Source: Candidatus Moraniibacteriota bacterium
GTDB taxonomy: Bacteria > Patescibacteriota > Minisyncoccia > Moranbacterales > UBA1568
Direction: 5' to 3'
NCBI GenBank assembly: GCA_043743535.1
Contig: JAYTWI010000020.1
Coordinates: forward strand, 10,039-74,038
Length of the DNA: 64,000 bases
In this document: positions 3,746 to 13,721 of the stretch, one piece after another
Layout: every line of letters starts with the position of its first letter
Position numbering within the stretch: the stretch's first letter is position 1
Notes under the pieces: model-generated
The model's input: only the letters and a program-made list of their open reading frames with translations
What the model was told of the DNA's origin: nothing
Database searches by the model: none
Position numbers and translations under genes: made by a program

Positions 3746-6223
3746 CTAGAGAATCTTCAGTCCCAGAGTGCAGGTGCCCACCAGTCCCGTGAGTATTCCT
3801 CCTACCACGGTACTGATGCGGTTACCCGAAGAGATAGTGGTGGGTGAACCAATCAGTGTCCCCGTTTTGGTACTGTTGAGCGATCCAGAAAGATCGATGG
3901 CTGAACTGAGCTGACTAGTACCAGCCCCAGGGGCATCCGAAGCCGTATCCACACTCACCTGGAAGGTACCGAGTAAACCAGCTGCTACAGAATACGAACA
4001 CTTGGCGCTCGTCAACTGATAGCTCCTATCCGCCACAAAGATAGCTTGCGTTAACACCGTAGCCAAAAGTGGCACTTGGATAAAGAGGGTCTGTGGGATC
4101 TTGTTCCCACCGACCGTGAGACTATCAGCCGTTGTAACCGCCAGCGTCTTCCCGGATGCAACCGTTGTTGTCCCATTCAGAGAAACTGCTCCCGTACCAG
4201 TCGCTAGTGTTCCTGAAGAGGCGGACTGATCTATGTTGCCGGAAGTAAGCGTCACACCTGTGACACCAGTGAGTGCTCCAGCAGCCGAGAGATTAAGAGT
4301 GGGAGAGGTCAGAAAATTATTCATCCCAGTCCCAAAGGTCAGGCCATTGAAAGTATTGCCACCAACGGCTGATACCGTTCCGAAAGAAATCCCAGTGAGA
4401 GTGTTCGTCCCACCAGATGTCCCCGTCAAGTCAAGTGTTATGCCTTTGACCGCATTCGTACCACTACTCCCGCTATTAGTGAGAGCGATGGTATGGGCGG
4501 TTCCGGTACTAGCAGAAAATGTCTGACTCAAAACCCCATCGCCACTCGTCAGCAGTACATCTTTGTTCGCTGCAATAGTCGTATCACCGTTGAGTGAGAT
4601 GGCACCAGTCCCCGTAGAGAATGTTCCGCTACCAACAATAGCCACATTGCCCGATCCTTGGGTATAGCCCGTGATGCCGGACAGGGCACCGCTCGTAGAA
4701 ACATCTAGTCCGGTAGAGTCCACTTGGAGGGCGCCTGTACTATTCCCCAATGTGAGCGCATTACCCGCTCCACTAGCTAAAATAGTAGCGCCCGAAGAAG
4801 TAAGTGAAGTAAAGATACTGGCTGCCGGACTGGTCCCGCCAATATTGATACCATTAATGGTGCCTCCATTAGCAGTCAGCGTGCCAGCGGTGATAGCGTT
4901 TGTCACATTCGAGAGTGTGAGAGCGGTCGCCGTGTTTGAACCACGATTGGCAACTGCATTCAGGGTGTCTGCTTCTGTTGCCGTCACTGTCACAACACCA
5001 CCGGATGCACCGATCGCATTGATACCCCCTGCTGCTACCGTCACGCTGCCGGTCTGACCGTTGAGAGCCGTCACGCCAGAATTGGTAATACTGATAGTGC
5101 CCAAACCATTAGAAATGCCAACCCCCGTCCCAGCACTGAGAACAGACAGGGCATAACCCGATCCATTGCCGATAAGCATCTGTCCATTGGTGGGAATAGT
5201 AGTGACACCGGTACCACCACTGCCAACGGGGAGCGCACTAATGCCGCTGATACTGCCACCCGTGATAGTCACACTGCCGGCGTTTTGCACAGCCAAGGTT
5301 CCAAGAGCGAGATTGGTTCGTGCTGTGGCCGCATTGGTCAGATCTGACAGGTTATTGGTTGATACCAAATCCCCTGTCCCGCCCCCACCCAAATAACTGG
5401 TAATATTACTACTAGTCACCAGCGTTCCTGAATTACCGGACAACGTAAAAGTCGCATCAGTAGAGAGCGTCCCGATATCAAGCGTCGCATAATGTGTATC
5501 ACTAGCGTCTTTTATTTTAAGGCTACTCCTCGCATCATCCAAAACGATGTTGTAGCCACCACCCTGCACCCAATCACTCGAAAGGCTTCCCAGACTTACC
5601 TCGGCCGTAGCACCCTCTCCCTGATTACCCGAAATATCAATCCCACTACCACCCACGGTTTTTTTGACATAGGCACCCGTTGTTTGTGATCCGAGTTTCA
5701 CTGCTCCGGTCTCGATCTCGGCATTTGATACCGTTTGTCCAATCAGGGATATCTGATTATTTTGTCGCAGCAGAGTGAGTAGGCGAGTTTGCTCGTCAGC
5801 TGTGAGATTAATTACCGTTCCTGAAACATCTCGAGTCAAAAGATCAGTTGGTGTTGTATAGAAATTCTGAGTGACTTCGGTCGTGTTATTCTCGATGACA
5901 CTTTTTTTGGTGATGATGTTTCCTTTAGCAGCGCCGTTCGTCACTGTCGATAAAGAACCAGGCGCGCCGCTGCCAGTGCTCTTGGTTCCTGAAGAAAAAG
6001 TTCCTTGTACTTGAGAAAAGGGAATGGTCCACTCTGCCACTGGAATCAGCCTGGTTTCATCTTGCAAAGACCGCTCCGTACCGGAAAAGAGCGGGCTCGT
6101 ATCGGTCTGAATAAGTGCACGGTCGAATACTGGCTGAATCGGCGCCGCAAGTGCGGTGCTACTAAAAAACGTAACAGTAAGCACCGCTCCAAGAAAAAGA
6201 AGTCCTCCGTATTTCTTTTTCAT
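3746..6223 (-). CDS. secreted Gly/Thr/Ser-rich repeat protein (beta-helix/adhesin-like surface protein)
   Basis: Sec signal peptide MKKKYGGLLFLGAVLTVTFFSSTALA. About 800 aa of low-complexity G/T/S/N/A repeats (…GTGVT…, …TLTGISFGTV…). Confidence 0.7.
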   Translation of the reverse strand: MKKKYGGLLFLGAVLTVTFFSSTALAAPIQPVFDRALIQTDTSPLFSGTERSLQDETRLIPVAEWTIPFSQVQGTFSSGTKSTGSGAPGSLSTVTNGAAKGNIITKKSVIENNTTEVTQNFYTTPTDLLTRDVSGTVINLTADEQTRLLTLLRQNNQISLIGQTVSNAEIETGAVKLGSQTTGAYVKKTVGGSGIDISGNQGEGATAEVSLGSLSSDWVQGGGYNIVLDDARSSLKIKDASDTHYATLDIGTLSTDATFTLSGNSGTLVTSSNITSYLGGGGTGDLVSTNNLSDLTNAATARTNLALGTLAVQNAGSVTITGGSISGISALPVGSGGTGVTTIPTNGQMLIGNGSGYALSVLSAGTGVGISNGLGTISITNSGVTALNGQTGSVTVAAGGINAIGASGGVVTVTATEADTLNAVANRGSNTATALTLSNVTNAITAGTLTANGGTINGINIGGTSPAASIFTSLTSSGATILASGAGNALTLGNSTGALQVDSTGLDVSTSGALSGITGYTQGSGNVAIVGSGTFSTGTGAISLNGDTTIAANKDVLLTSGDGVLSQTFSASTGTAHTIALTNSGSSGTNAVKGITLDLTGTSGGTNTLTGISFGTVSAVGGNTFNGLTFGTGMNNFLTSPTLNLSAAGALTGVTGVTLTSGNIDQSASSGTLATGTGAVSLNGTTTVASGKTLAVTTADSLTVGGNKIPQTLFIQVPLLATVLTQAIFVADRSYQLTSAKCSYSVAAGLLGTFQVSVDTASDAPGAGTSQLSSAIDLSGSLNSTKTGTLIGSPTTISSGNRISTVVGGILTGLVGTCTLGLKIL

Positions 6224-7110: not shown

Positions 7111-7337
7111 ATATGAAAAATGTCTTTGAAAGAATCAAATAATTTTATTCTAAATAAATTATACACTTTTTGAGATACTTATGCCAAGTACCGCTCACAT
7201 CAAACCGCATAGGCCGTTCACATTGGCTCATGATACTTGCTTGGTGCCTACTTCGTGTGCGCCCGGTGACTTCGGTGGTGTTCGTGATAGCTCTTGCTTT
7301 TGCCCCACCCCTCCCAGTGCGCGCACAAGCAGACTCC

Positions 7338-9038
7338 CTATGATTTTTCTTTATCATTTCCACCAACTAACTTTTTGACTGTGGCAATGACATTATCAAA
7401 TACAGAAGTTAGCTTTGTTTTTGCTTCTTCGGTTAACCGAGATGTATGCATTACAGAGTTTCGTAGTGGTTTGTAGGGTTTATCTTCGTCTTCCAAGATA
7501 TCGTCTTTAATTATTTTTGCTAAATCTATGTAATCCAAATACATCAGCAGATTCTCTTCAGCAATTCTGATTTGGATTGAAGTTCCTGCAATTTTCTTAT
7601 CCTCCTGCAAGCCCTTTTTTCTGCTTTCACCTTTACAAAATTGGCACCAGCTTTTTTCTGATTGATTGGGTCTGGTTGTGCAAGTATGTCCGTCACTTTG
7701 CTTTAAACAACTAATTGGAATTTTGCCAGAATTTTCAATATGCCTTCTTAGAAGATTTTCGGAAATGAAGCACTCAATATAACCTGTACTGTTAAAAGCT
7801 GCGTCATCTGTTAGTTCTGTAAGAAAGTCATCACCCCCCTCGCCAGAACCTCCCATGTATTCTTTTTTTACTTCGCGGTATAGAGACTTTGCTTTTTTAA
7901 ATTTTGAAGCTTTTTCAAGATTACCATCTTTACCACGCTCATCACGGAGATCATCCCATTGATCCATTATTGCAAGCACTGTCTTTTTCAACTCACCCAA
8001 AAATTCTTTGTAGAGTGGGTCATCAGCGAGTACACCTTCTCGACTGCTGATGAATCTATCTTTTCCATCCTTATCCAAGGCATCAAAATGAATTTGACCA
8101 TACAAGTAGTTTTCAGGAAGCTGAGCAGATGGAATATGTTTCAAAATATCCGTCTCCCTTACTCGACCATTTACAAATAAATCCACACCCACTTTTTCTC
8201 CCGTAGAGTGTATGTTCCTATCCTTTGGAAATTCAACGGATGCAATAAAACCAGTGATCTTGTCCGCCATTTTTACGGGCATAGTTTTGTATACCTTTTC
8301 GCAATACTTCTCTAGATATTCGTCCCCAGTCCAATTGTTGATATTCCAAACAAACTCTGTCTTTTCCGCAATACTTTTTAGTGATGCAAGCGTTATGAGT
8401 TCTCGGTCAAGATATATATTGAAATTTTTATCTACGAGTGAAAATCTGAAGTGAAGCGCTATAATTTTTTTCAAAAAATCATCCGTATTGTGAATACCGT
8501 CCTTTATGTTTTCAAAACAGATAATAGTTCCATTAGTATGCCCGTCCTTCATCTCTGTAAATAATGAATCATCCACTGACTCAAGAGAATAATCGTGAGA
8601 GGATCTATCATCTTTGATGGCTTCATCTAATCCAGAATTATCTATTGCACCACCAACGTAATCATCTTCTAATGATTTTCTTGAAATGATAGTTATTTTG
8701 TCCGCACAGGACAAAAGAGCCAACTTCCCAATGCCTTTATTTCCTATATAAGGACGGAGGTACGGTTCTGGAGAGCTCATGCCACCCTGTGTTCTCTTTG
8801 AATACCCGACTTTTAAGAATCTTTCTTTAAAATCGGTGGAGTCCATTCCGATACCATCATCTTTAATCCAGAATCTATTATTTTCTTTGTCGATTGAGAT
8901 CCAGACATTTTTGGCATTCGCATCCCATGCATTGGAAATCGCCTCACCAATGACAGTAGGAAAAGTCCTGTATAAATTTCTACCGAGGTGATTTAGTACA
9001 CTCAGAGATATATTAAATGTATATTTTTCACTTTCCAT
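7338..9038 (-). CDS. MORC-like GHKL (Bergerat-fold) ATPase with central zinc ribbon and C-terminal HEPN-like motif
   Basis: GHKL motifs: EAISNAWDA (motif I), DDGIGM (DxGxG), GNKGIGKLA (GxxGxG). Zinc ribbon C…HTC…CQFC. C-terminal LRNSVMH (RNxxxH) at nt 7446-7463. 11-nt overlap with the upstream MTase gene. Confidence 0.7.
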   Translation of the reverse strand: MESEKYTFNISLSVLNHLGRNLYRTFPTVIGEAISNAWDANAKNVWISIDKENNRFWIKDDGIGMDSTDFKERFLKVGYSKRTQGGMSSPEPYLRPYIGNKGIGKLALLSCADKITIISRKSLEDDYVGGAIDNSGLDEAIKDDRSSHDYSLESVDDSLFTEMKDGHTNGTIICFENIKDGIHNTDDFLKKIIALHFRFSLVDKNFNIYLDRELITLASLKSIAEKTEFVWNINNWTGDEYLEKYCEKVYKTMPVKMADKITGFIASVEFPKDRNIHSTGEKVGVDLFVNGRVRETDILKHIPSAQLPENYLYGQIHFDALDKDGKDRFISSREGVLADDPLYKEFLGELKKTVLAIMDQWDDLRDERGKDGNLEKASKFKKAKSLYREVKKEYMGGSGEGGDDFLTELTDDAAFNSTGYIECFISENLLRRHIENSGKIPISCLKQSDGHTCTTRPNQSEKSWCQFCKGESRKKGLQEDKKIAGTSIQIRIAEENLLMYLDYIDLAKIIKDDILEDEDKPYKPLRNSVMHTSRLTEEAKTKLTSVFDNVIATVKKLVGGNDKEKS

Positions 9039-10074
9039 AGATTTCTAAGTGCTTTTTTATCTGTCTGCCAATCACAACCCCCAACTGAGGAGGAACTGCG
9101 TTACCAATATGCCTACTCAGTTTTGCACTAGGAAAATCCCCGAAATCATAATCAATAGGAAATGTCTGTAGTAATGCACCCTCACGTATTGAAAGTGCCC
9201 TGTTTTGTTCTGGATGTCCAAAACGTCCAGACCCATAACTTGTAAATTGCGTTGTGATTGTTGGTGACACGTCACCCCATCTCATTCGTCCATATACTGA
9301 AGTATATGTTTGCCCGCTATCTTTTTTGTAGCAGTCTGGCAATAGATTTTTATCCCAATCACGCCAAGTACCACCGGGTTTTGATTGAAGAATACGTTTC
9401 TTATTTATTGGCTCAAGCTTCTTTGCTTGGTGTAAATAATCCCTCTTTGATATTTCCCCCGCATCAATTCTCGGCAATTCACGAATAACGTCACCCACGG
9501 TAACATAATTATCCTTGGTATGCGTTTCTTTTGGTATTAAAATTTCGCCTAGTCTCGAAGCGAGCAAAATTAGACGGCTACGATTTTGTGGTATGCCGTA
9601 ATTTGGTGCATATACAACTTTCCAATCCACCTTATATCCAAGTTTTTTAAGTTTATTTACGAAGTTCTTAAATACATCTGTTGTCGTAACCCCACGAACG
9701 TTCTCCATTGAAACAATGTCTGGCTTAACAACTTTTATTCCACGGATAAAGTGATCAAGCAAGTTCCAGCGCTCATCCTTTGCATCTTTACGTAATTTAA
9801 AAGCATGAGAAGAAAAAGGTTGGCAGGGAGCACAGCCGACAAGCACCCGCACACTACCTTTTGAGTAAATTTTGTTTAACTCTTTAAAATCAAACTTCGA
9901 AATATCTGCTGATATAAACTTAGCTGCGTTGTTTTTCTCATACGCATAAGCGCACGACTCATCATTATCAAGACCAGCCAAGACTGATAATCCTGATTTT
10001 CTTAATCCGTATGTCAAACCACCTACTCCACTAAACAGATCAATGACTTCAATTTTTTTATCTTTTTTGCTCAT
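9028..10074 (-). CDS. DNA (cytosine-5)-methyltransferase (Dcm-type)
   Basis: Motif I DLFSGVGG, motif IV GCAPCQPFS, motif VI ENV, motif VIII QNRSR. Confidence 0.9.
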   Translation of the reverse strand: MSKKDKKIEVIDLFSGVGGLTYGLRKSGLSVLAGLDNDESCAYAYEKNNAAKFISADISKFDFKELNKIYSKGSVRVLVGCAPCQPFSSHAFKLRKDAKDERWNLLDHFIRGIKVVKPDIVSMENVRGVTTTDVFKNFVNKLKKLGYKVDWKVVYAPNYGIPQNRSRLILLASRLGEILIPKETHTKDNYVTVGDVIRELPRIDAGEISKRDYLHQAKKLEPINKKRILQSKPGGTWRDWDKNLLPDCYKKDSGQTYTSVYGRMRWGDVSPTITTQFTSYGSGRFGHPEQNRALSIREGALLQTFPIDYDFGDFPSAKLSRHIGNAVPPQLGVVIGRQIKKHLEIYGK

Positions 10075-10112: not shown

Positions 10113-11216
10113 TTATTTCCCGGACTTCGTTCGATTATCCTGCTTGCACAACATCTGGCAATTTTCTGCGGTGGTTTTTCCACCTTCGTGCCATGGATTG
10201 ATATGGTCGGCTTCCATTTCACTCAACTCAAAACTTTCCCCGCATTTCGTACAGATTCCTTTTTGTCTTTCGTATGATTCGCGCTTCATTTTGTCGTTGA
10301 AAGCGCGTATTGAGAGATGTCTTTCTTGTTTAGTGAAAAGAAAGGGATAGATACCAGACTTCTTCGTTACGTCATCGTCCTGCATCATTTTTGCGACCTC
10401 AATTTCTAGCTTTTCAGCATTCTGCTTCTTATCTTTAAATTGATTGTACAATTCACCCCAATTCACATTCGCCATTTCTTTGCGATGGTTAGAGAACGCC
10501 TTACGCACCCACGCTACAACATTTTGGAAATACTCCCACAGTTCGTCAGCTTTTTTATCATGCTGATGTTTCGCCATGTAATTAGCTACTTCACCACTAT
10601 TGATCCATGAAAGTGCCGTTTCCAAGTATTCTTGGCGGATTGGTGAACCCGTAAGCAACGCACCGCCGTCATTTGCCAAAAGGTAAGCAGCGCAATTTGA
10701 TTTACTAAATTTGAGTTTTGCGTCAGAGAGCCATGAGCCAGTATAAACAGCGTTGCGAAGTTCTTGATCGGTCAATTTTTCACCAGCGATATTGATAATC
10801 TTAAACCAATCAAGTTTCTCCTTGTCCGTACCTTCGCAGAAGTAGACCATCAATTCATAATCAAGAATCTGCTCCTGTTCCTCTTTGGTGAGATTGTGGA
10901 ACATCGCAAGGCGACCATTAAAATCCACCGAAAAATCACCGTTTGCAAATTGCCCAATACTGATTGTTCTTTGCTGCCCGTCCAGTACCTCGAAGCTATC
11001 TTCAGCAGTTTTTATCCAATACATTACGTTGAGCGGGAATCCTTTCTTGACGGTATCAATAACCGCGTCGCGCTGTTTGTCTTTATAAACAAACTCTCGT
11101 TGATATTTTGGACGGACATTAAGTTTCCCGCCGTAGGCAACAACACCTTCCTCGGCACTGTCTTTATAGCCTTCGACCACCTCACGGATTTTTATTTTAT
11201 GTAGTTCGATTTTCAT
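10113..11216 (-). CDS. DUF262 (ParB/GmrS-like)::HNH nuclease fusion (GmrSD/type-IV-restriction-like)
   Basis: N-terminal KYQREFVY…LDGQQR (DUF262 signature). C-terminal CTKCGES…ADHINPWHEGGKTTAENCQMLCKQDN (HNH with Zn-ligand Cys). Confidence 0.85.
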   Translation of the reverse strand: MKIELHKIKIREVVEGYKDSAEEGVVAYGGKLNVRPKYQREFVYKDKQRDAVIDTVKKGFPLNVMYWIKTAEDSFEVLDGQQRTISIGQFANGDFSVDFNGRLAMFHNLTKEEQEQILDYELMVYFCEGTDKEKLDWFKIINIAGEKLTDQELRNAVYTGSWLSDAKLKFSKSNCAAYLLANDGGALLTGSPIRQEYLETALSWINSGEVANYMAKHQHDKKADELWEYFQNVVAWVRKAFSNHRKEMANVNWGELYNQFKDKKQNAEKLEIEVAKMMQDDDVTKKSGIYPFLFTKQERHLSIRAFNDKMKRESYERQKGICTKCGESFELSEMEADHINPWHEGGKTTAENCQMLCKQDNRTKSGK

Positions 11217-11217
11217 A

Positions 11218-12321
11218 TTATTTTTTAGTTTTGATTAACAAACGAGTATACGTAGATTTAAGTTTTCCATTAACTTTAATCACGGTACCTCTATTCAAAT
11301 CGTTATATTCTGGTGAATCTTTTTGTGTGTACAACTTAGTCCGATACTCATAGTTAGGGTCTCTATTATCTGACATTCCCAAAATTTCAAATTGATTTGG
11401 GTTATATTTATCGAGGAAAGTTATTGGAACGCCCATTACACGCTTATAATCCATTGGAATTTCAGAAACTTTTGAGACTTCTATCGCTCCATAGTTGTCA
11501 TATTGAGGAAATTCTTTAGGTGAGTATTTTTTATAGAGCGTTAATAATTCATGTCGTTTGGCTACATCAAGATTTGTAAACCAACCAATATTACCAAATT
11601 TCCTGATCGTTTTATCCGGCTGCATGAATTCTTTCAATCTGCCATACCCAGGCCATAATTTATTTTCTTGAACTAATTTAAAAATGTCTTGATACTTTCT
11701 TGCATTGTCATTTCCGACAATCAGAAATTTCTTTTTATATTTAACTAACTGAGCAACGTATTCACGAAAGAGCGAGAATGGCGGATTTGTTACCACAATG
11801 TCAGCTTGCCGCAGTAGTTCAATACTTTCTTCGCTTCGAAAGTCTCCCTCGTCTTTGAGCGGAATCCATTCATTGTTTTTATTCGCCTTGAGTTGCTCGG
11901 CAATATCACGTAGATCAAATGCACCATCGCCGTCTATATCCGACACATCATTGATAATAAATTTGTTGGCGGTTACCTTTGGTCTACCCTTTGGTTCCGC
12001 TGGCTTACTCACAACCTTATCTTCGTAGCCAGGAAGAAGTGATGGCTGCAATACAAGCTCTGTATTGGCAATCCGTGAGCGCTTGTAACTCGTAGCGATG
12101 AGCCTTTTTAATCCAAGTTCTTTGAAGTTACTCGCAAAGTATTTGAAGAAATTACTCTCGAATGGGTCATCACAGTTGCAATACACTACTTTTCCACGAA
12201 ACTGCTCTTTGTAGTGCTTTACTTCTTTTTCAATATCAGAAAGCTGAGTATAGAACTCGTCGTTCTTTACCTTGGCTGCTCGGTGTAAGTTTGAATTTGA
12301 AGACTCAGTTTTCATAATCAT
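11218..12321 (-). CDS. N6-adenine DNA methyltransferase, EcoRI-methylase-like family (putative)
   Basis: N-terminal DEFYTQ, VVYCNCDDP…NFFKYF, motif IV DIVVTNPPFSLFREY. From memory it resembles M.EcoRI-family proteins; not verified. 1-nt gap to the downstream gene. Confidence 0.75.
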   Translation of the reverse strand: MIMKTESSNSNLHRAAKVKNDEFYTQLSDIEKEVKHYKEQFRGKVVYCNCDDPFESNFFKYFASNFKELGLKRLIATSYKRSRIANTELVLQPSLLPGYEDKVVSKPAEPKGRPKVTANKFIINDVSDIDGDGAFDLRDIAEQLKANKNNEWIPLKDEGDFRSEESIELLRQADIVVTNPPFSLFREYVAQLVKYKKKFLIVGNDNARKYQDIFKLVQENKLWPGYGRLKEFMQPDKTIRKFGNIGWFTNLDVAKRHELLTLYKKYSPKEFPQYDNYGAIEVSKVSEIPMDYKRVMGVPITFLDKYNPNQFEILGMSDNRDPNYEYRTKLYTQKDSPEYNDLNRGTVIKVNGKLKSTYTRLLIKTKK

Positions 12322-12464
12322 TTCTGTATCAAATCATCAACTTTGACTTTTCAGCTCTGATTTTCTTACCAAACTTGTCTTGCTTTGATTTAAGTTCGAA
12401 ATCTTCAGAACATTTTGAGAAGCACTTGTGTAATTTACCGCAAGCTTTTCATCAAAAGTAAGTC

Positions 12465-13319
12465 TCATGTATTTTTTGACTTTAGCTTTTGTGACTTTCG
12501 CGGTTCTGGTAAATAATTTTCACGAGAAGATATTTTCTTACCGCTCTTGAGCTCAAGTTGCCTCCGAGCATCTCCCGCGATATCGCCACCCGCTTTTGCA
12601 ACAGATTTATTTTCGAGAAAACCTTGTGCGTTTTTGTTGCGAGCGATTTCTGTCGTTGAAGCTTCCCCGAGCATGGTGAAAATGAGCTCGAGATCATTCA
12701 TGTGGTCACGCAAATTTTCCCGTTTCAATCCTTTGAGTTTATGGTATTGACTCGGAGTCATCCCAAATGTTGCCTTTGAAATTTCGGCGGTGAGGATTGC
12801 ATATTCTTGTCCTTCTTTTACTCCACGTTTTTTCCATTCACCTGCAAGTGTCTCGCGTACCTCAATACCACGCATTCGTTTTTCAATCCATGCTTCAGAA
12901 TATCCCTTAGCTTTATATATTGCTCGCGTGCGCTTTGTGGCAAGTTCTGGATTTTCTATCTCTTCAATTCGCTCATAACCAACTCGTGCCAGCCAGCGTT
13001 TGAAAGGTTCGGCTTTAGGAGAAGAAATTGATTGTATTATACGAAAAATTCCTTCTGTATTTGCACAGTTTAGTTTTTGTGGACCTCCTGCCGTATCTAC
13101 GGAAAGGGGGGTGGCAATTTGCCCCCACCCTTCAGAGAGTTCTTTGTCACGCCTACGCATGTCCTTAATGTATCCTTTTGGTTGAACAGAGTCTGTTAAA
13201 ACTGCCACGACATCTTCAATAACAAACCACCATTCGTTTTTATAAAGAGCCTTGCGCACTTCCTTCTTTTGAAAAATTGCGATTTTGGTAATGGTTTGGT
13301 TTTGTGTTGTCATAATCAT
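12465..13319 (-). CDS. Bro-N domain protein (DinD / phage anti-repressor-like)
   Basis: N-terminus …NEWWFVIEDVVAVLTDSVQPKGYIKDMRRRDKEL… fits the Bro-N fold pattern. Charged C-terminal half. Confidence 0.55.
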   Translation of the reverse strand: MIMTTQNQTITKIAIFQKKEVRKALYKNEWWFVIEDVVAVLTDSVQPKGYIKDMRRRDKELSEGWGQIATPLSVDTAGGPQKLNCANTEGIFRIIQSISSPKAEPFKRWLARVGYERIEEIENPELATKRTRAIYKAKGYSEAWIEKRMRGIEVRETLAGEWKKRGVKEGQEYAILTAEISKATFGMTPSQYHKLKGLKRENLRDHMNDLELIFTMLGEASTTEIARNKNAQGFLENKSVAKAGGDIAGDARRQLELKSGKKISSRENYLPEPRKSQKLKSKNT

Positions 13320-13465
13320 TTCAAAAGTTGATCTACGCTCACCCCAAGTACTTTCGAGACCTTTTCCATTGTGCTCAGTGTAAGATTTTGTTTGCCGTTC
13401 TCAACATTACTGATATATGCCCTATCTAAACCTAACGCTCGGGGAAATTTGAATTCCGAATTTTG

Positions 13466-13484
13466 GCGGAAGAGGAGGGATTCG
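13466..13484. repeat. 19-nt direct repeat of the tRNA-Ser 3' end (possible att remnant)
   Basis: gcggaagaggagggattcg is identical to 13634..13652, the T-arm/acceptor 3' half of the tRNA. Confidence 0.6.
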
Positions 13485-13634
13485 GTCACGAATATTTTTT
13501 GTGCCGACGCCCAAAAAATTTCTCGACCTCGCCTCGCGGCCAGACGTGCTCGTCTGGCATCGCTGTGGCCTTCTCATCCCTCTCGAAAGCCAAGCAGTTG
13601 GCTTTCTCTCTTGCCTCGTTCACTACGTTCACTG

Positions 13635-13721
13635 CGGAAGAGGAGGGATTCGAACCCTCGGTACGGTTTCCCGCACGCTTGCTTTCCAAGCAAGTACCTT
13701 AAGCCGCTCGGCCACCCTTCC
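13635..13721 (-). tRNA. tRNA-Ser (anticodon GGA)
   Basis: Hand-folded cloverleaf. Acceptor GGAAGGG/CTCTTCC, anticodon stem CTTGC/GCAAG with loop TTGGAAA, long variable arm, T-arm GAGGG-TTCGAAT-CCCTC, discriminator G. CCA not encoded. Confidence 0.85.

Follow-up and report, generated by a model that had tools for sequence, protein, structure and literature searches.

Introduction

In reviews of bacterial defence up to 2025, the only proteins discussed as carrying a DUF262 domain are GmrSD, BrxU, SspE, Menshen, Dazbog and PD-T4-2 (PMC10952713, PMC12065111). The HNH nucleases among type II restriction enzymes have been sorted into 14 subfamilies, none of which is described with a ParB or DUF262 domain (Orlowski and Bujnicki 2008, PMC2441816). 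Here we report on a gene pair from a 64-kb stretch of contig JAYTWI010000020.1 (assembly GCA_043743535.1) of a Candidatus Moraniibacteriota bacterium, hereafter called the window, in which a gene for an EcoRI-family adenine methylase (M) is followed on the same strand by a gene for a DUF262-HNH nuclease (R) that has no obvious match among those subfamilies. The pair had been singled out in a sequence-only reading of the window, which described an EcoRI-like methylase with a DUF262::HNH gene 1 nt downstream and no EcoRI-type endonuclease, and which left three explanations standing: a type II pair made unusual by an HNH enzyme in place of R.EcoRI, a methylase that protects against a neighbouring activity, or two genes from different systems. 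The open reading frames (ORFs), the letters of the junction and the Pfam matches all confirm the described arrangement. From the analysis presented below, we consider M-R to be probably a methylation-protected, HNH-based, mobile, type II-like restriction-modification (R-M) cassette.

Results

An EcoRI-family methylase followed by a DUF262-HNH nuclease

The product of M matches the Pfam family EcoRI_methylase (PF13651) along the entire profile (positions 1-345 of 345; E 3.6e-124, 415 bits) and the PADLOC-DB model MTase_II (PDLC03297) from end to end (E 4.1e-104). Its motifs include DEFYTQ, CNCDDP within a conserved N-terminal block, and VVTNPPFSLFREY. The catalytic motif NPPF is intact within VVTNPPF, and the protein thus has the S-adenosylmethionine-binding and catalytic (N/D)PP(F/Y) motifs that a type II R-M methylase should have. 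Compared with authentic M.EcoRI, for which we used the Escherichia coli plasmid gene adjoining an annotated R.EcoRI, M is 42% identical over its full length (BLASTP, E 5e-87), and the two proteins differ very little in the N-terminal block and in the DIVVTNPPFSLFREY...KKFLI catalytic block. Across the family, two segments of the methylase are hypervariable (approximately residues 85-150 and 316-350).

The product of R begins with a GmrSD_N/DUF262 domain (PF03235, residues 34-158, E 6.9e-19; LDGQQR at 78-83) and ends with an HNH domain (PF01844, residues 322-365, E 8.1e-13) bearing the motif CxxC...DH...N...CxxC, in which the CxxC...CxxC pairs are zinc ligands; no Pfam match to DUF1524 was found in R at E <= 0.01. 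Residues 1-367 of R align with positions 1-372 of 372 of the PADLOC model REase_II (PDLC03418; E 3.8e-140, 465 bits), and weak matches to the models mREase_IV (E 0.0027) and PD-T4-2_A were also recorded. Because both proteins match PADLOC models end to end, the M-R family is already filed there as type II R-M; the PADLOC papers cite REBASE as their source for such systems.

Across 37 homologues of R, N352 and the first zinc cysteine, C322, of the HNH domain and D79, G80, Q82 and R83 of the DUF262 domain are invariant, and D337 and H338 of the former and Q81 of the latter are conserved in at least 90% of the sequences. Among homologues at 35-55% identity, the nucleotide-binding residues of RPxYQR and DGQQR and a QELRN block are likewise invariant or nearly so. 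Selection therefore acts on the nucleotide-binding pocket as well as on the nuclease site. An AlphaFold2 model built on the alignment of the 37 homologues is confident (predicted local distance difference test 92.4, predicted template modelling score 0.79) and shows three parts. Residues ~1-160 form a mixed alpha/beta domain of the ParB/Srx kind, the middle domain (~160-300) is entirely helical, and residues ~305-367 adopt the beta-beta-alpha HNH fold. The nearest solved structures to the model are BrxU, SspE and DndI.

The letters across the junction of the two genes read ...AAA TAA T ATG AAA..., and translational coupling of R to M is likely. Comparably tight junctions occur in annotated relatives (related loci are denoted by L and a number): M and R overlap by 4 nt in L001 and L095, share a single base in L002 and are separated by 1 nt in L092. 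A tblastn search with R.EcoRI across the 64 kb returned only chance matches (E > 1), and the earlier remark that no EcoRI-type endonuclease is present thus holds for the whole window.

M and R occur together across genomes, plasmids and phage

More than 8000 close homologues of R are present in public data. The top matches, at 78-92% identity, come from the candidate phyla radiation (CPR/Patescibacteria), namely Uhrbacteria, Paceibacterota, Ryanbacteria, Peribacteria and Gracilibacteria, and clustering at 50% identity yields 489 representatives with E < 1e-30. Scanning one genome per GTDB species with a query alignment of nine sequences, we collected 80 related loci in which R is 59-87% identical and which span CPR, Archaea (Methanobacterium, Pacearchaeota), Bacteroidota, Bacillota, Chloroflexota, Proteobacteria, Actinomycetota and others. 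When these were searched by tblastn with the methylase of the window, 75 of the 80, or 75 of the 77 that could be checked, proved to have an EcoRI-family methylase gene ahead of R in the same orientation. Of the remaining five, three offer nothing upstream to inspect, and two (L011 and L013) have some room and no methylase; in both of the latter a RhuM-like gene is embedded directly upstream of R, and L011 extends only ~190 nt beyond that gene. Eight of the 75 linked loci have 0.6-3.7 kb between M and R, with inserted genes present in the gaps inspected. These are RhuM-like in L010, L060 and L061, and homologues of the Bro-N/PDC-S13 gene of the window in L047 and L050 (Table 1). The RhuM-like call was made from the N-terminal sequence (MPKKK...TPDG...VWLTQ..MAELF).

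The same association is seen on mobile replicons. All 24 of the listed full-length R homologues on plasmids, down to 37% identity, share their plasmid with an EcoRI-family methylase, the two genes mostly overlapping or abutting, and a 7.5-kb Ligilactobacillus plasmid has MerR, M, R and rep as its only gene content. In the Flavobacterium phage laban6-1, M and R overlap by 4 nt and form an opposite-strand insert among structural genes. Among seven cluster representatives at 35-46% identity to R, five have the methylase upstream or fused; L089, in a phage-like context, has none, and the sequence of L086 is too short to tell. An organism in which TGA encodes tryptophan has the methylase, DUF262 and HNH parts joined in frame in a single protein of 688 residues (P0133, locus L084). 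The methylase part of this fusion has FPSF in place of NPPF and CNAGDG in place of CNCDDP; the domain may be catalytically dead and serve as a DNA-binding module only.

Identities of 59-92% in R across CPR, Archaea and at least six bacterial phyla indicate that the cassette has been transferred horizontally both very recently and very broadly. Median pairwise identity is 53% for M and 63% for R, and R is the more conserved of the two in 85% of pairs. The conserved cores of the two proteins are equally diverged, with a median distance of 0.32 for each, and the pairwise identities of M and R are correlated (Spearman 0.58), so that the two are inherited as a unit. They are thus separate, adjacent and co-inherited genes, as is expected of a type II system. 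With core divergence taken out, no specific co-variation is left between the variable blocks of the two proteins (partial r 0.06, a value reached by 62 of 500 permutations). Greater conservation of R than of M was considered as a sign of an unusual mechanism and rejected, since the two hypervariable segments of M explain it.

Taken together, these counts refute the suggestion that the two genes belong to different systems, and they dispose of the proviso that DUF262-HNH genes might never be linked to methylases in other genomes. As for the proposal of an unusual type II pair, the loci, plasmids, phage, fusion and PADLOC assignment bear out that M and R are cognate; the pair is not unusual, however, as a DUF262-HNH protein is the common partner of PF13651 methylases and such pairing is the norm in this family.

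The position of M.EcoRI among the linked methylases

M.EcoRI is up to 61% identical to methylases linked to DUF262-HNH genes (L047 and L058). The median BLOSUM distance among the linked methylases is 0.49 and the minimum from M.EcoRI to them is 0.39, so that M.EcoRI is closer to this group than many of its members are to each other. In a midpoint-rooted neighbour-joining tree, M.EcoRI is nested in a 28-member clade of DUF262-HNH-linked methylases. Most PF13651 matches on plasmids also adjoin a DUF262 gene, and the small enterobacterial plasmids with a genuine R.EcoRI are a minority. Because M.EcoRI nests among these methylases, it is R.EcoRI that looks like the exceptional partner. The tree has no outgroup and the loci were picked by similarity to R, so it suggests only weakly that DUF262-HNH nucleases are the usual partners of PF13651 methylases and that R.EcoRI was swapped in. 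If one nuclease did take the place of the other, the direction was more likely the reverse of that first proposed, in which an HNH enzyme replaces R.EcoRI.

Local history of the cassette

In a close relative (L097 and L098), R is 91% identical and the gene order of the cassette is large serine recombinase, 156-aa ORF, 65-aa HTH_3 gene (HTH, helix-turn-helix), M and R, with the stop of the HTH_3 gene overlapping the start of M. The window retains in frame, before M, no more than the last 10 codons of such a controller-like gene, and the 33 nt upstream of M align with the HTH_3-M junction of L097 and L098. A second, 5'-truncated HTH_3 ORF lies further upstream (Table 1), its first ~16 HTH positions missing or replaced; it shares 39% identity with the 65-aa HTH protein of L097 and overlaps the start of the Bro-N/PDC-S13 gene by 4 nt, much as the HTH gene overlaps M. 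The start regions of the Bro-N gene and of M share a 17-nt identity, the HTH junction thus being present twice. A similar HTH gene upstream of M was detected only in the nearest CPR relatives (L004, L097 and L098), where it is intact, encodes 65 aa and overlaps M, with a large serine recombinase beside it. Judged against the L097/L098 cassette, the window copy has lost the recombinase, no longer has an intact controller-like HTH gene, and has gained the Bro-N/PDC-S13 gene upstream. In L047 and L050, homologues of the latter separate M from R; its window counterpart lies upstream of M, and the gene is probably an embedded hitch-hiker and not part of the core pair. It has the look of a gene recurrently embedded in the M-R cassette.

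A low-GC island with a second R-M module

The cassette lies in a stretch of low GC content (~7.1-13.5 kb; ~37-41% GC, with ~46-52% on the flanks) that abuts a tRNA-Ser(gga) gene. All of its genes are on the minus strand, in the order truncated HTH_3, Bro-N/PDC-S13, M, R, C5 cytosine methylase (Dcm) and GHKL-ATPase protein. The 19-nt direct repeat of the tRNA end (Table 1) was matched to the same extent in 0 of 100 shuffles; it falls inside the damaged 5' end of the HTH_3 ORF, and we read it as an att-like scar marking the island edge. A third copy was searched for at the far edge (~7.1-7.34 kb) and was not found.

The remaining two genes of the island begin 38 nt downstream of R and overlap each other by 11 nt. 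The GHKL protein aligns through its N-terminal part with 374 of the 659 positions of the NCBIfam BbrUII/HgiDII profile, scoring 278 bits where the equivalog cut-off is 550, and is therefore a relative of these enzymes and not an equivalog; no family was matched by the ~190 residues at its C-terminus. Given this kinship, and given that plasmid homologues of the GHKL protein abut genes for DNA cytosine methyltransferases, the island holds two adjacent R-M modules, with Dcm and GHKL forming a separate, HgiDII/BbrUII-like one. No GTCGAC site occurs within the island. Given the linkage described above, and as homologues of Dcm and of the GHKL protein are absent from all 80 M-R loci, M and R are one functional unit that is independent of this module.

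Two further features were noted at or just beyond the edge of the island. A GC-rich intergenic segment has a predicted fold of -58 kcal/mol (z -2.4) on the minus strand and no Rfam match at E <= 1. An 825-aa ORF just outside the island has a signal-peptide-like N-terminus and long low-complexity repeats rich in Gly, Thr, Ser and Ala, and may encode a surface or fibre-like protein.

Table 1. Positions of the gene pair, of its neighbours in the window and of related genes in other loci
Feature	Location	Strand	Description
M gene, 367 aa	window 11218-12321	-	gamma-class N6-adenine DNA methyltransferase, EcoRI_methylase family; Pfam and PADLOC
R gene, 367 aa	window 10113-11216	-	DUF262 (ParB/Srx-like, DGQQR), helical middle domain and zinc-ribbon HNH
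Spacer, 1 nt	window 11217	-	M stop TAA to R start ATG; operon junction; read from sequence
HTH remnant	window 12318-12350	-	3' end of controller-like gene, encodes ...KVKVDDLIQK*; stop overlaps M start
Bro-N/PDC-S13 gene (DinD-like), 284 aa	window 12465-13319	-	Pfam Bro-N E 1.8e-12; PADLOC PDC-S13 E 1.4e-111
HTH_3 ORF, 57 aa, 5'-truncated	window 13316-13489	-	HTH_3 profile positions 17-55 only
att-like repeat, 19 nt	window 13466-13484		exact copy of tRNA-Ser 3' end (13634-13652), 168 nt away
tRNA-Ser(gga)	window 13634-13721	-	
C5 cytosine methyltransferase (Dcm), 348 aa	window 9028-10074	-	Pfam DNA_methylase E 1.5e-63
GHKL-ATPase protein, 566 aa	window 7338-9038	-	candidate restriction endonuclease; HATPase_c_3 E 1.7e-17; PADLOC REase_II models
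GC-rich intergenic segment, ~160 nt	window 7185-7345		past GHKL stop, at island boundary
ORF, 825 aa	window 3746-6223	-	just outside island
RhuM-like genes	L010 3949-4992; L060 3974-5011; L061 3848-4525; L011 189-836; L013 3561-4523		N-terminal resemblance only
Bro-N homologues	L047 4158-4952; L050 762-1556		between M and R
HTH_3 gene	L097 3744-3941		stop overlaps M start
M::DUF262::HNH fusion gene, 688 aa	L084 4001-6067		protein P0133

Discussion

The linkage of M and R provides the simplest guide to how the pair may work. R sits in an operon behind M on replicons that are prone to addiction, so the product of M should not activate R; for a nuclease encoded in such an operon, classical restriction of unmethylated DNA is the simplest mechanism. 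According to this interpretation, M would methylate adenine at N6 in a short target on host DNA, possibly but not necessarily related to GAATTC, and R, through a beta-beta-alpha-metal HNH site, would cut DNA that lacks the methylation of M. Expression of the two genes would be coupled by their order, M before R, and by the single nucleotide between them. The DUF262 domain, whose nucleotide-binding signature is complete, would bind or hydrolyse a nucleoside triphosphate (NTP); this would govern dimerisation or clamping and so license the nuclease, in the manner of BrxU, SspE and ParB (PMC10952713). By analogy with these proteins, the DUF262 domain of R is most likely an NTP-controlled switch. 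The blocking of cleavage by methylation, the sequence specificity of cleavage and its gating by NTP are all properties that we infer.

Several observations weigh against an orthodox version of this mechanism, or against the type II assignment itself. Orthodox type II restriction endonucleases do not typically contain a ParB-like domain that binds NTP, and the conservation of the NTP-binding motifs of DUF262 casts doubt on NTP-free cleavage that needs only Mg2+. Structure comparison brings out as nearest neighbours of the model DUF262 nucleases that depend on or sense modification and are not type II enzymes, and no solved type II structure was found in it to resemble R. No named, characterised enzyme behind the PADLOC REase_II model could be traced through the PADLOC papers. 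NCBIfam has no model for R, to which PGAP, the annotation pipeline, gives only the name 'DUF262 domain-containing protein'; the source names of ten clusters of R homologues are similarly limited to 'DUF262 domain-containing', 'HNH endonuclease' and 'GmrSD ... domain-containing'. Literature searches on the pairing of DUF262-HNH with PF13651 gave no biochemical report and no solved structure of the class, so that M-R is a locus of a catalogued kind for which these searches yielded no prototype, recognition sequence, paper or structure. Within the 64-kb window neither GAATTC (12 sites observed, 13.7 expected) nor any specific 4-mer or 6-mer palindrome is depleted, only a generic, mild depletion of 4-mer palindromes being seen (AATT, 361 observed and 380 expected); these counts tell little about the target. 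Finally, a few homologues of R have no methylase nearby (L013, and L089 with its phage-like context).

Among the alternatives, the one that draws most on these observations is an NTP-driven system like Ssp or Dnd, in which DUF262, clamped to DNA or sliding along it, would read m6A (N6-methyladenine) or the lack of it, and R would cut or nick away from a fixed site. The invariant NTP-binding motifs and the structural kinship with BrxU, SspE and DndI are both consistent with such a system, and SspE is reported to depend on the modification of its own host and to nick DNA when triggered by its NTPase (PMC9646914, PMC10952713). R also has no hypervariable block comparable to those of M, and the variable blocks of the two proteins do not co-vary; the blocks of M may, however, be loops that are irrelevant to specificity. 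A two-gene cassette that is carried on tiny plasmids as an M-first operon has the look of classical R-M, and the PADLOC model files R as a type II endonuclease. We therefore think this alternative unlikely; if it is true, 'type II' is a misnomer. It is very unlikely, in our view, that the pair is primarily a selfish, homing-type cassette whose HNH nuclease cuts cassette-free alleles or competing replicons, spreading it or killing segregants that lose it, with M as the self-antidote and phage defence as a secondary benefit. Its distribution across CPR, Archaea, Bacteroidota, Bacillota, Chloroflexota, Proteobacteria at 59-92% identity in R would fit this, as would its carriage on small plasmids, beside a large serine recombinase and in a phage, and the position of the window copy in a low-GC island beside a tRNA gene with an att-like repeat. 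Such a cassette would, however, differ from a restriction system in its selective benefit only and not in its mechanism, and the data do not separate the two.

The two alternatives that detach R from M fare worse still. R shares its DUF262 N-terminal domain with GmrSD, BrxU and SspE and has the weak mREase_IV and PD-T4-2_A matches already mentioned, which would suit a GmrSD-like, modification-dependent type IV enzyme beside a methylase that is an orphan or belongs to another system. In 75 of the 77 checkable loci, however, the methylase is upstream on the same strand, mostly with a tight junction, and a fusion of the two is known; R also lacks DUF1524 and has 367 residues against ~560-600, and a nuclease that attacks the product of its operon partner would be suicidal. 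We thus regard a type IV role for R as highly improbable. The suggestion that M protects the host from a nuclease next door, here the HgiDII/BbrUII-like GHKL-ATPase protein, has proximity in its favour, the second module beginning 38 nt downstream of R. As the GHKL gene overlaps a C5 methylase gene of its own, as its plasmid homologues abut cytosine methyltransferase genes and as neither Dcm nor GHKL occurs in any of the 80 M-R loci, this suggestion is unsupported, and we give it hardly any credence.

A bolder version of the restriction interpretation can also be put forward, if only tentatively and as something that we doubt more than we believe. Methylase-linked DUF262-HNH nucleases may constitute a distinct class, in which an NTP-gated, ParB-like clamp reads the absence of m6A, and they may be the ancestral or default partners of EcoRI-family methylases, with R.EcoRI as a late replacement. 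Should this be so, the polarity towards modification would be inverted relative to GmrSD and BrxU, perhaps with a sensing of the self-mark like that of Ssp and Dnd systems, and the enzymes would not be orthodox, Mg2+-only type II nucleases.

The pair has implications beyond the window. DUF262 has so far been discussed only in defence proteins that depend on or sense modification (PMC10952713, PMC12065111), and it is found here in a nuclease that, by genetic logic, should spare methylated DNA. With its 367 residues, R would together with M offer a compact two-gene model in which to study how modification reading by a ParB-like NTPase is linked to cleavage by an HNH nuclease. The cassette is among the more widely transferred R-M modules and thus bears on barriers to transformation in uncultured lineages. 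For annotation, a 'DUF262 domain-containing protein' encoded downstream of an 'EcoRI family' methylase should be read as a restriction enzyme, and the name 'EcoRI' methylase implies neither an EcoRI-type nuclease nor a GAATTC target.

Set beside the systems already described, M-R is a composite. With EcoRI R-M it shares the methylase, a full-length member of PF13651, whereas the endonuclease is a DUF262-HNH protein here and the PD-(D/E)xK enzyme R.EcoRI there, and the gene order is M then R in the window and R then M on the EcoRI plasmid. With GmrSD, BrxU and SspE it shares the N-terminal DUF262 domain with its DGQQR motif. The sequence-only reading had likened the whole architecture of R to that of these enzymes, and this resemblance is limited to DUF262: they combine it with DUF1524 in ~560-600 residues, while R combines it with a zinc-ribbon HNH domain of family PF01844 and is ~200 residues shorter. 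They also have no dedicated base methyltransferase partner, acting alone or coupled to phosphorothioation, whereas R almost always has an m6A methylase upstream. This linkage implies for R a polarity towards modification opposite to that of GmrSD, BrxU, SspE and DndI. In joining a beta-beta-alpha-Me HNH nuclease to a methylase encoded by a separate gene, M-R resembles HNH type II enzymes such as KpnI, NlaIII, SphI, Hpy99I and PacI.

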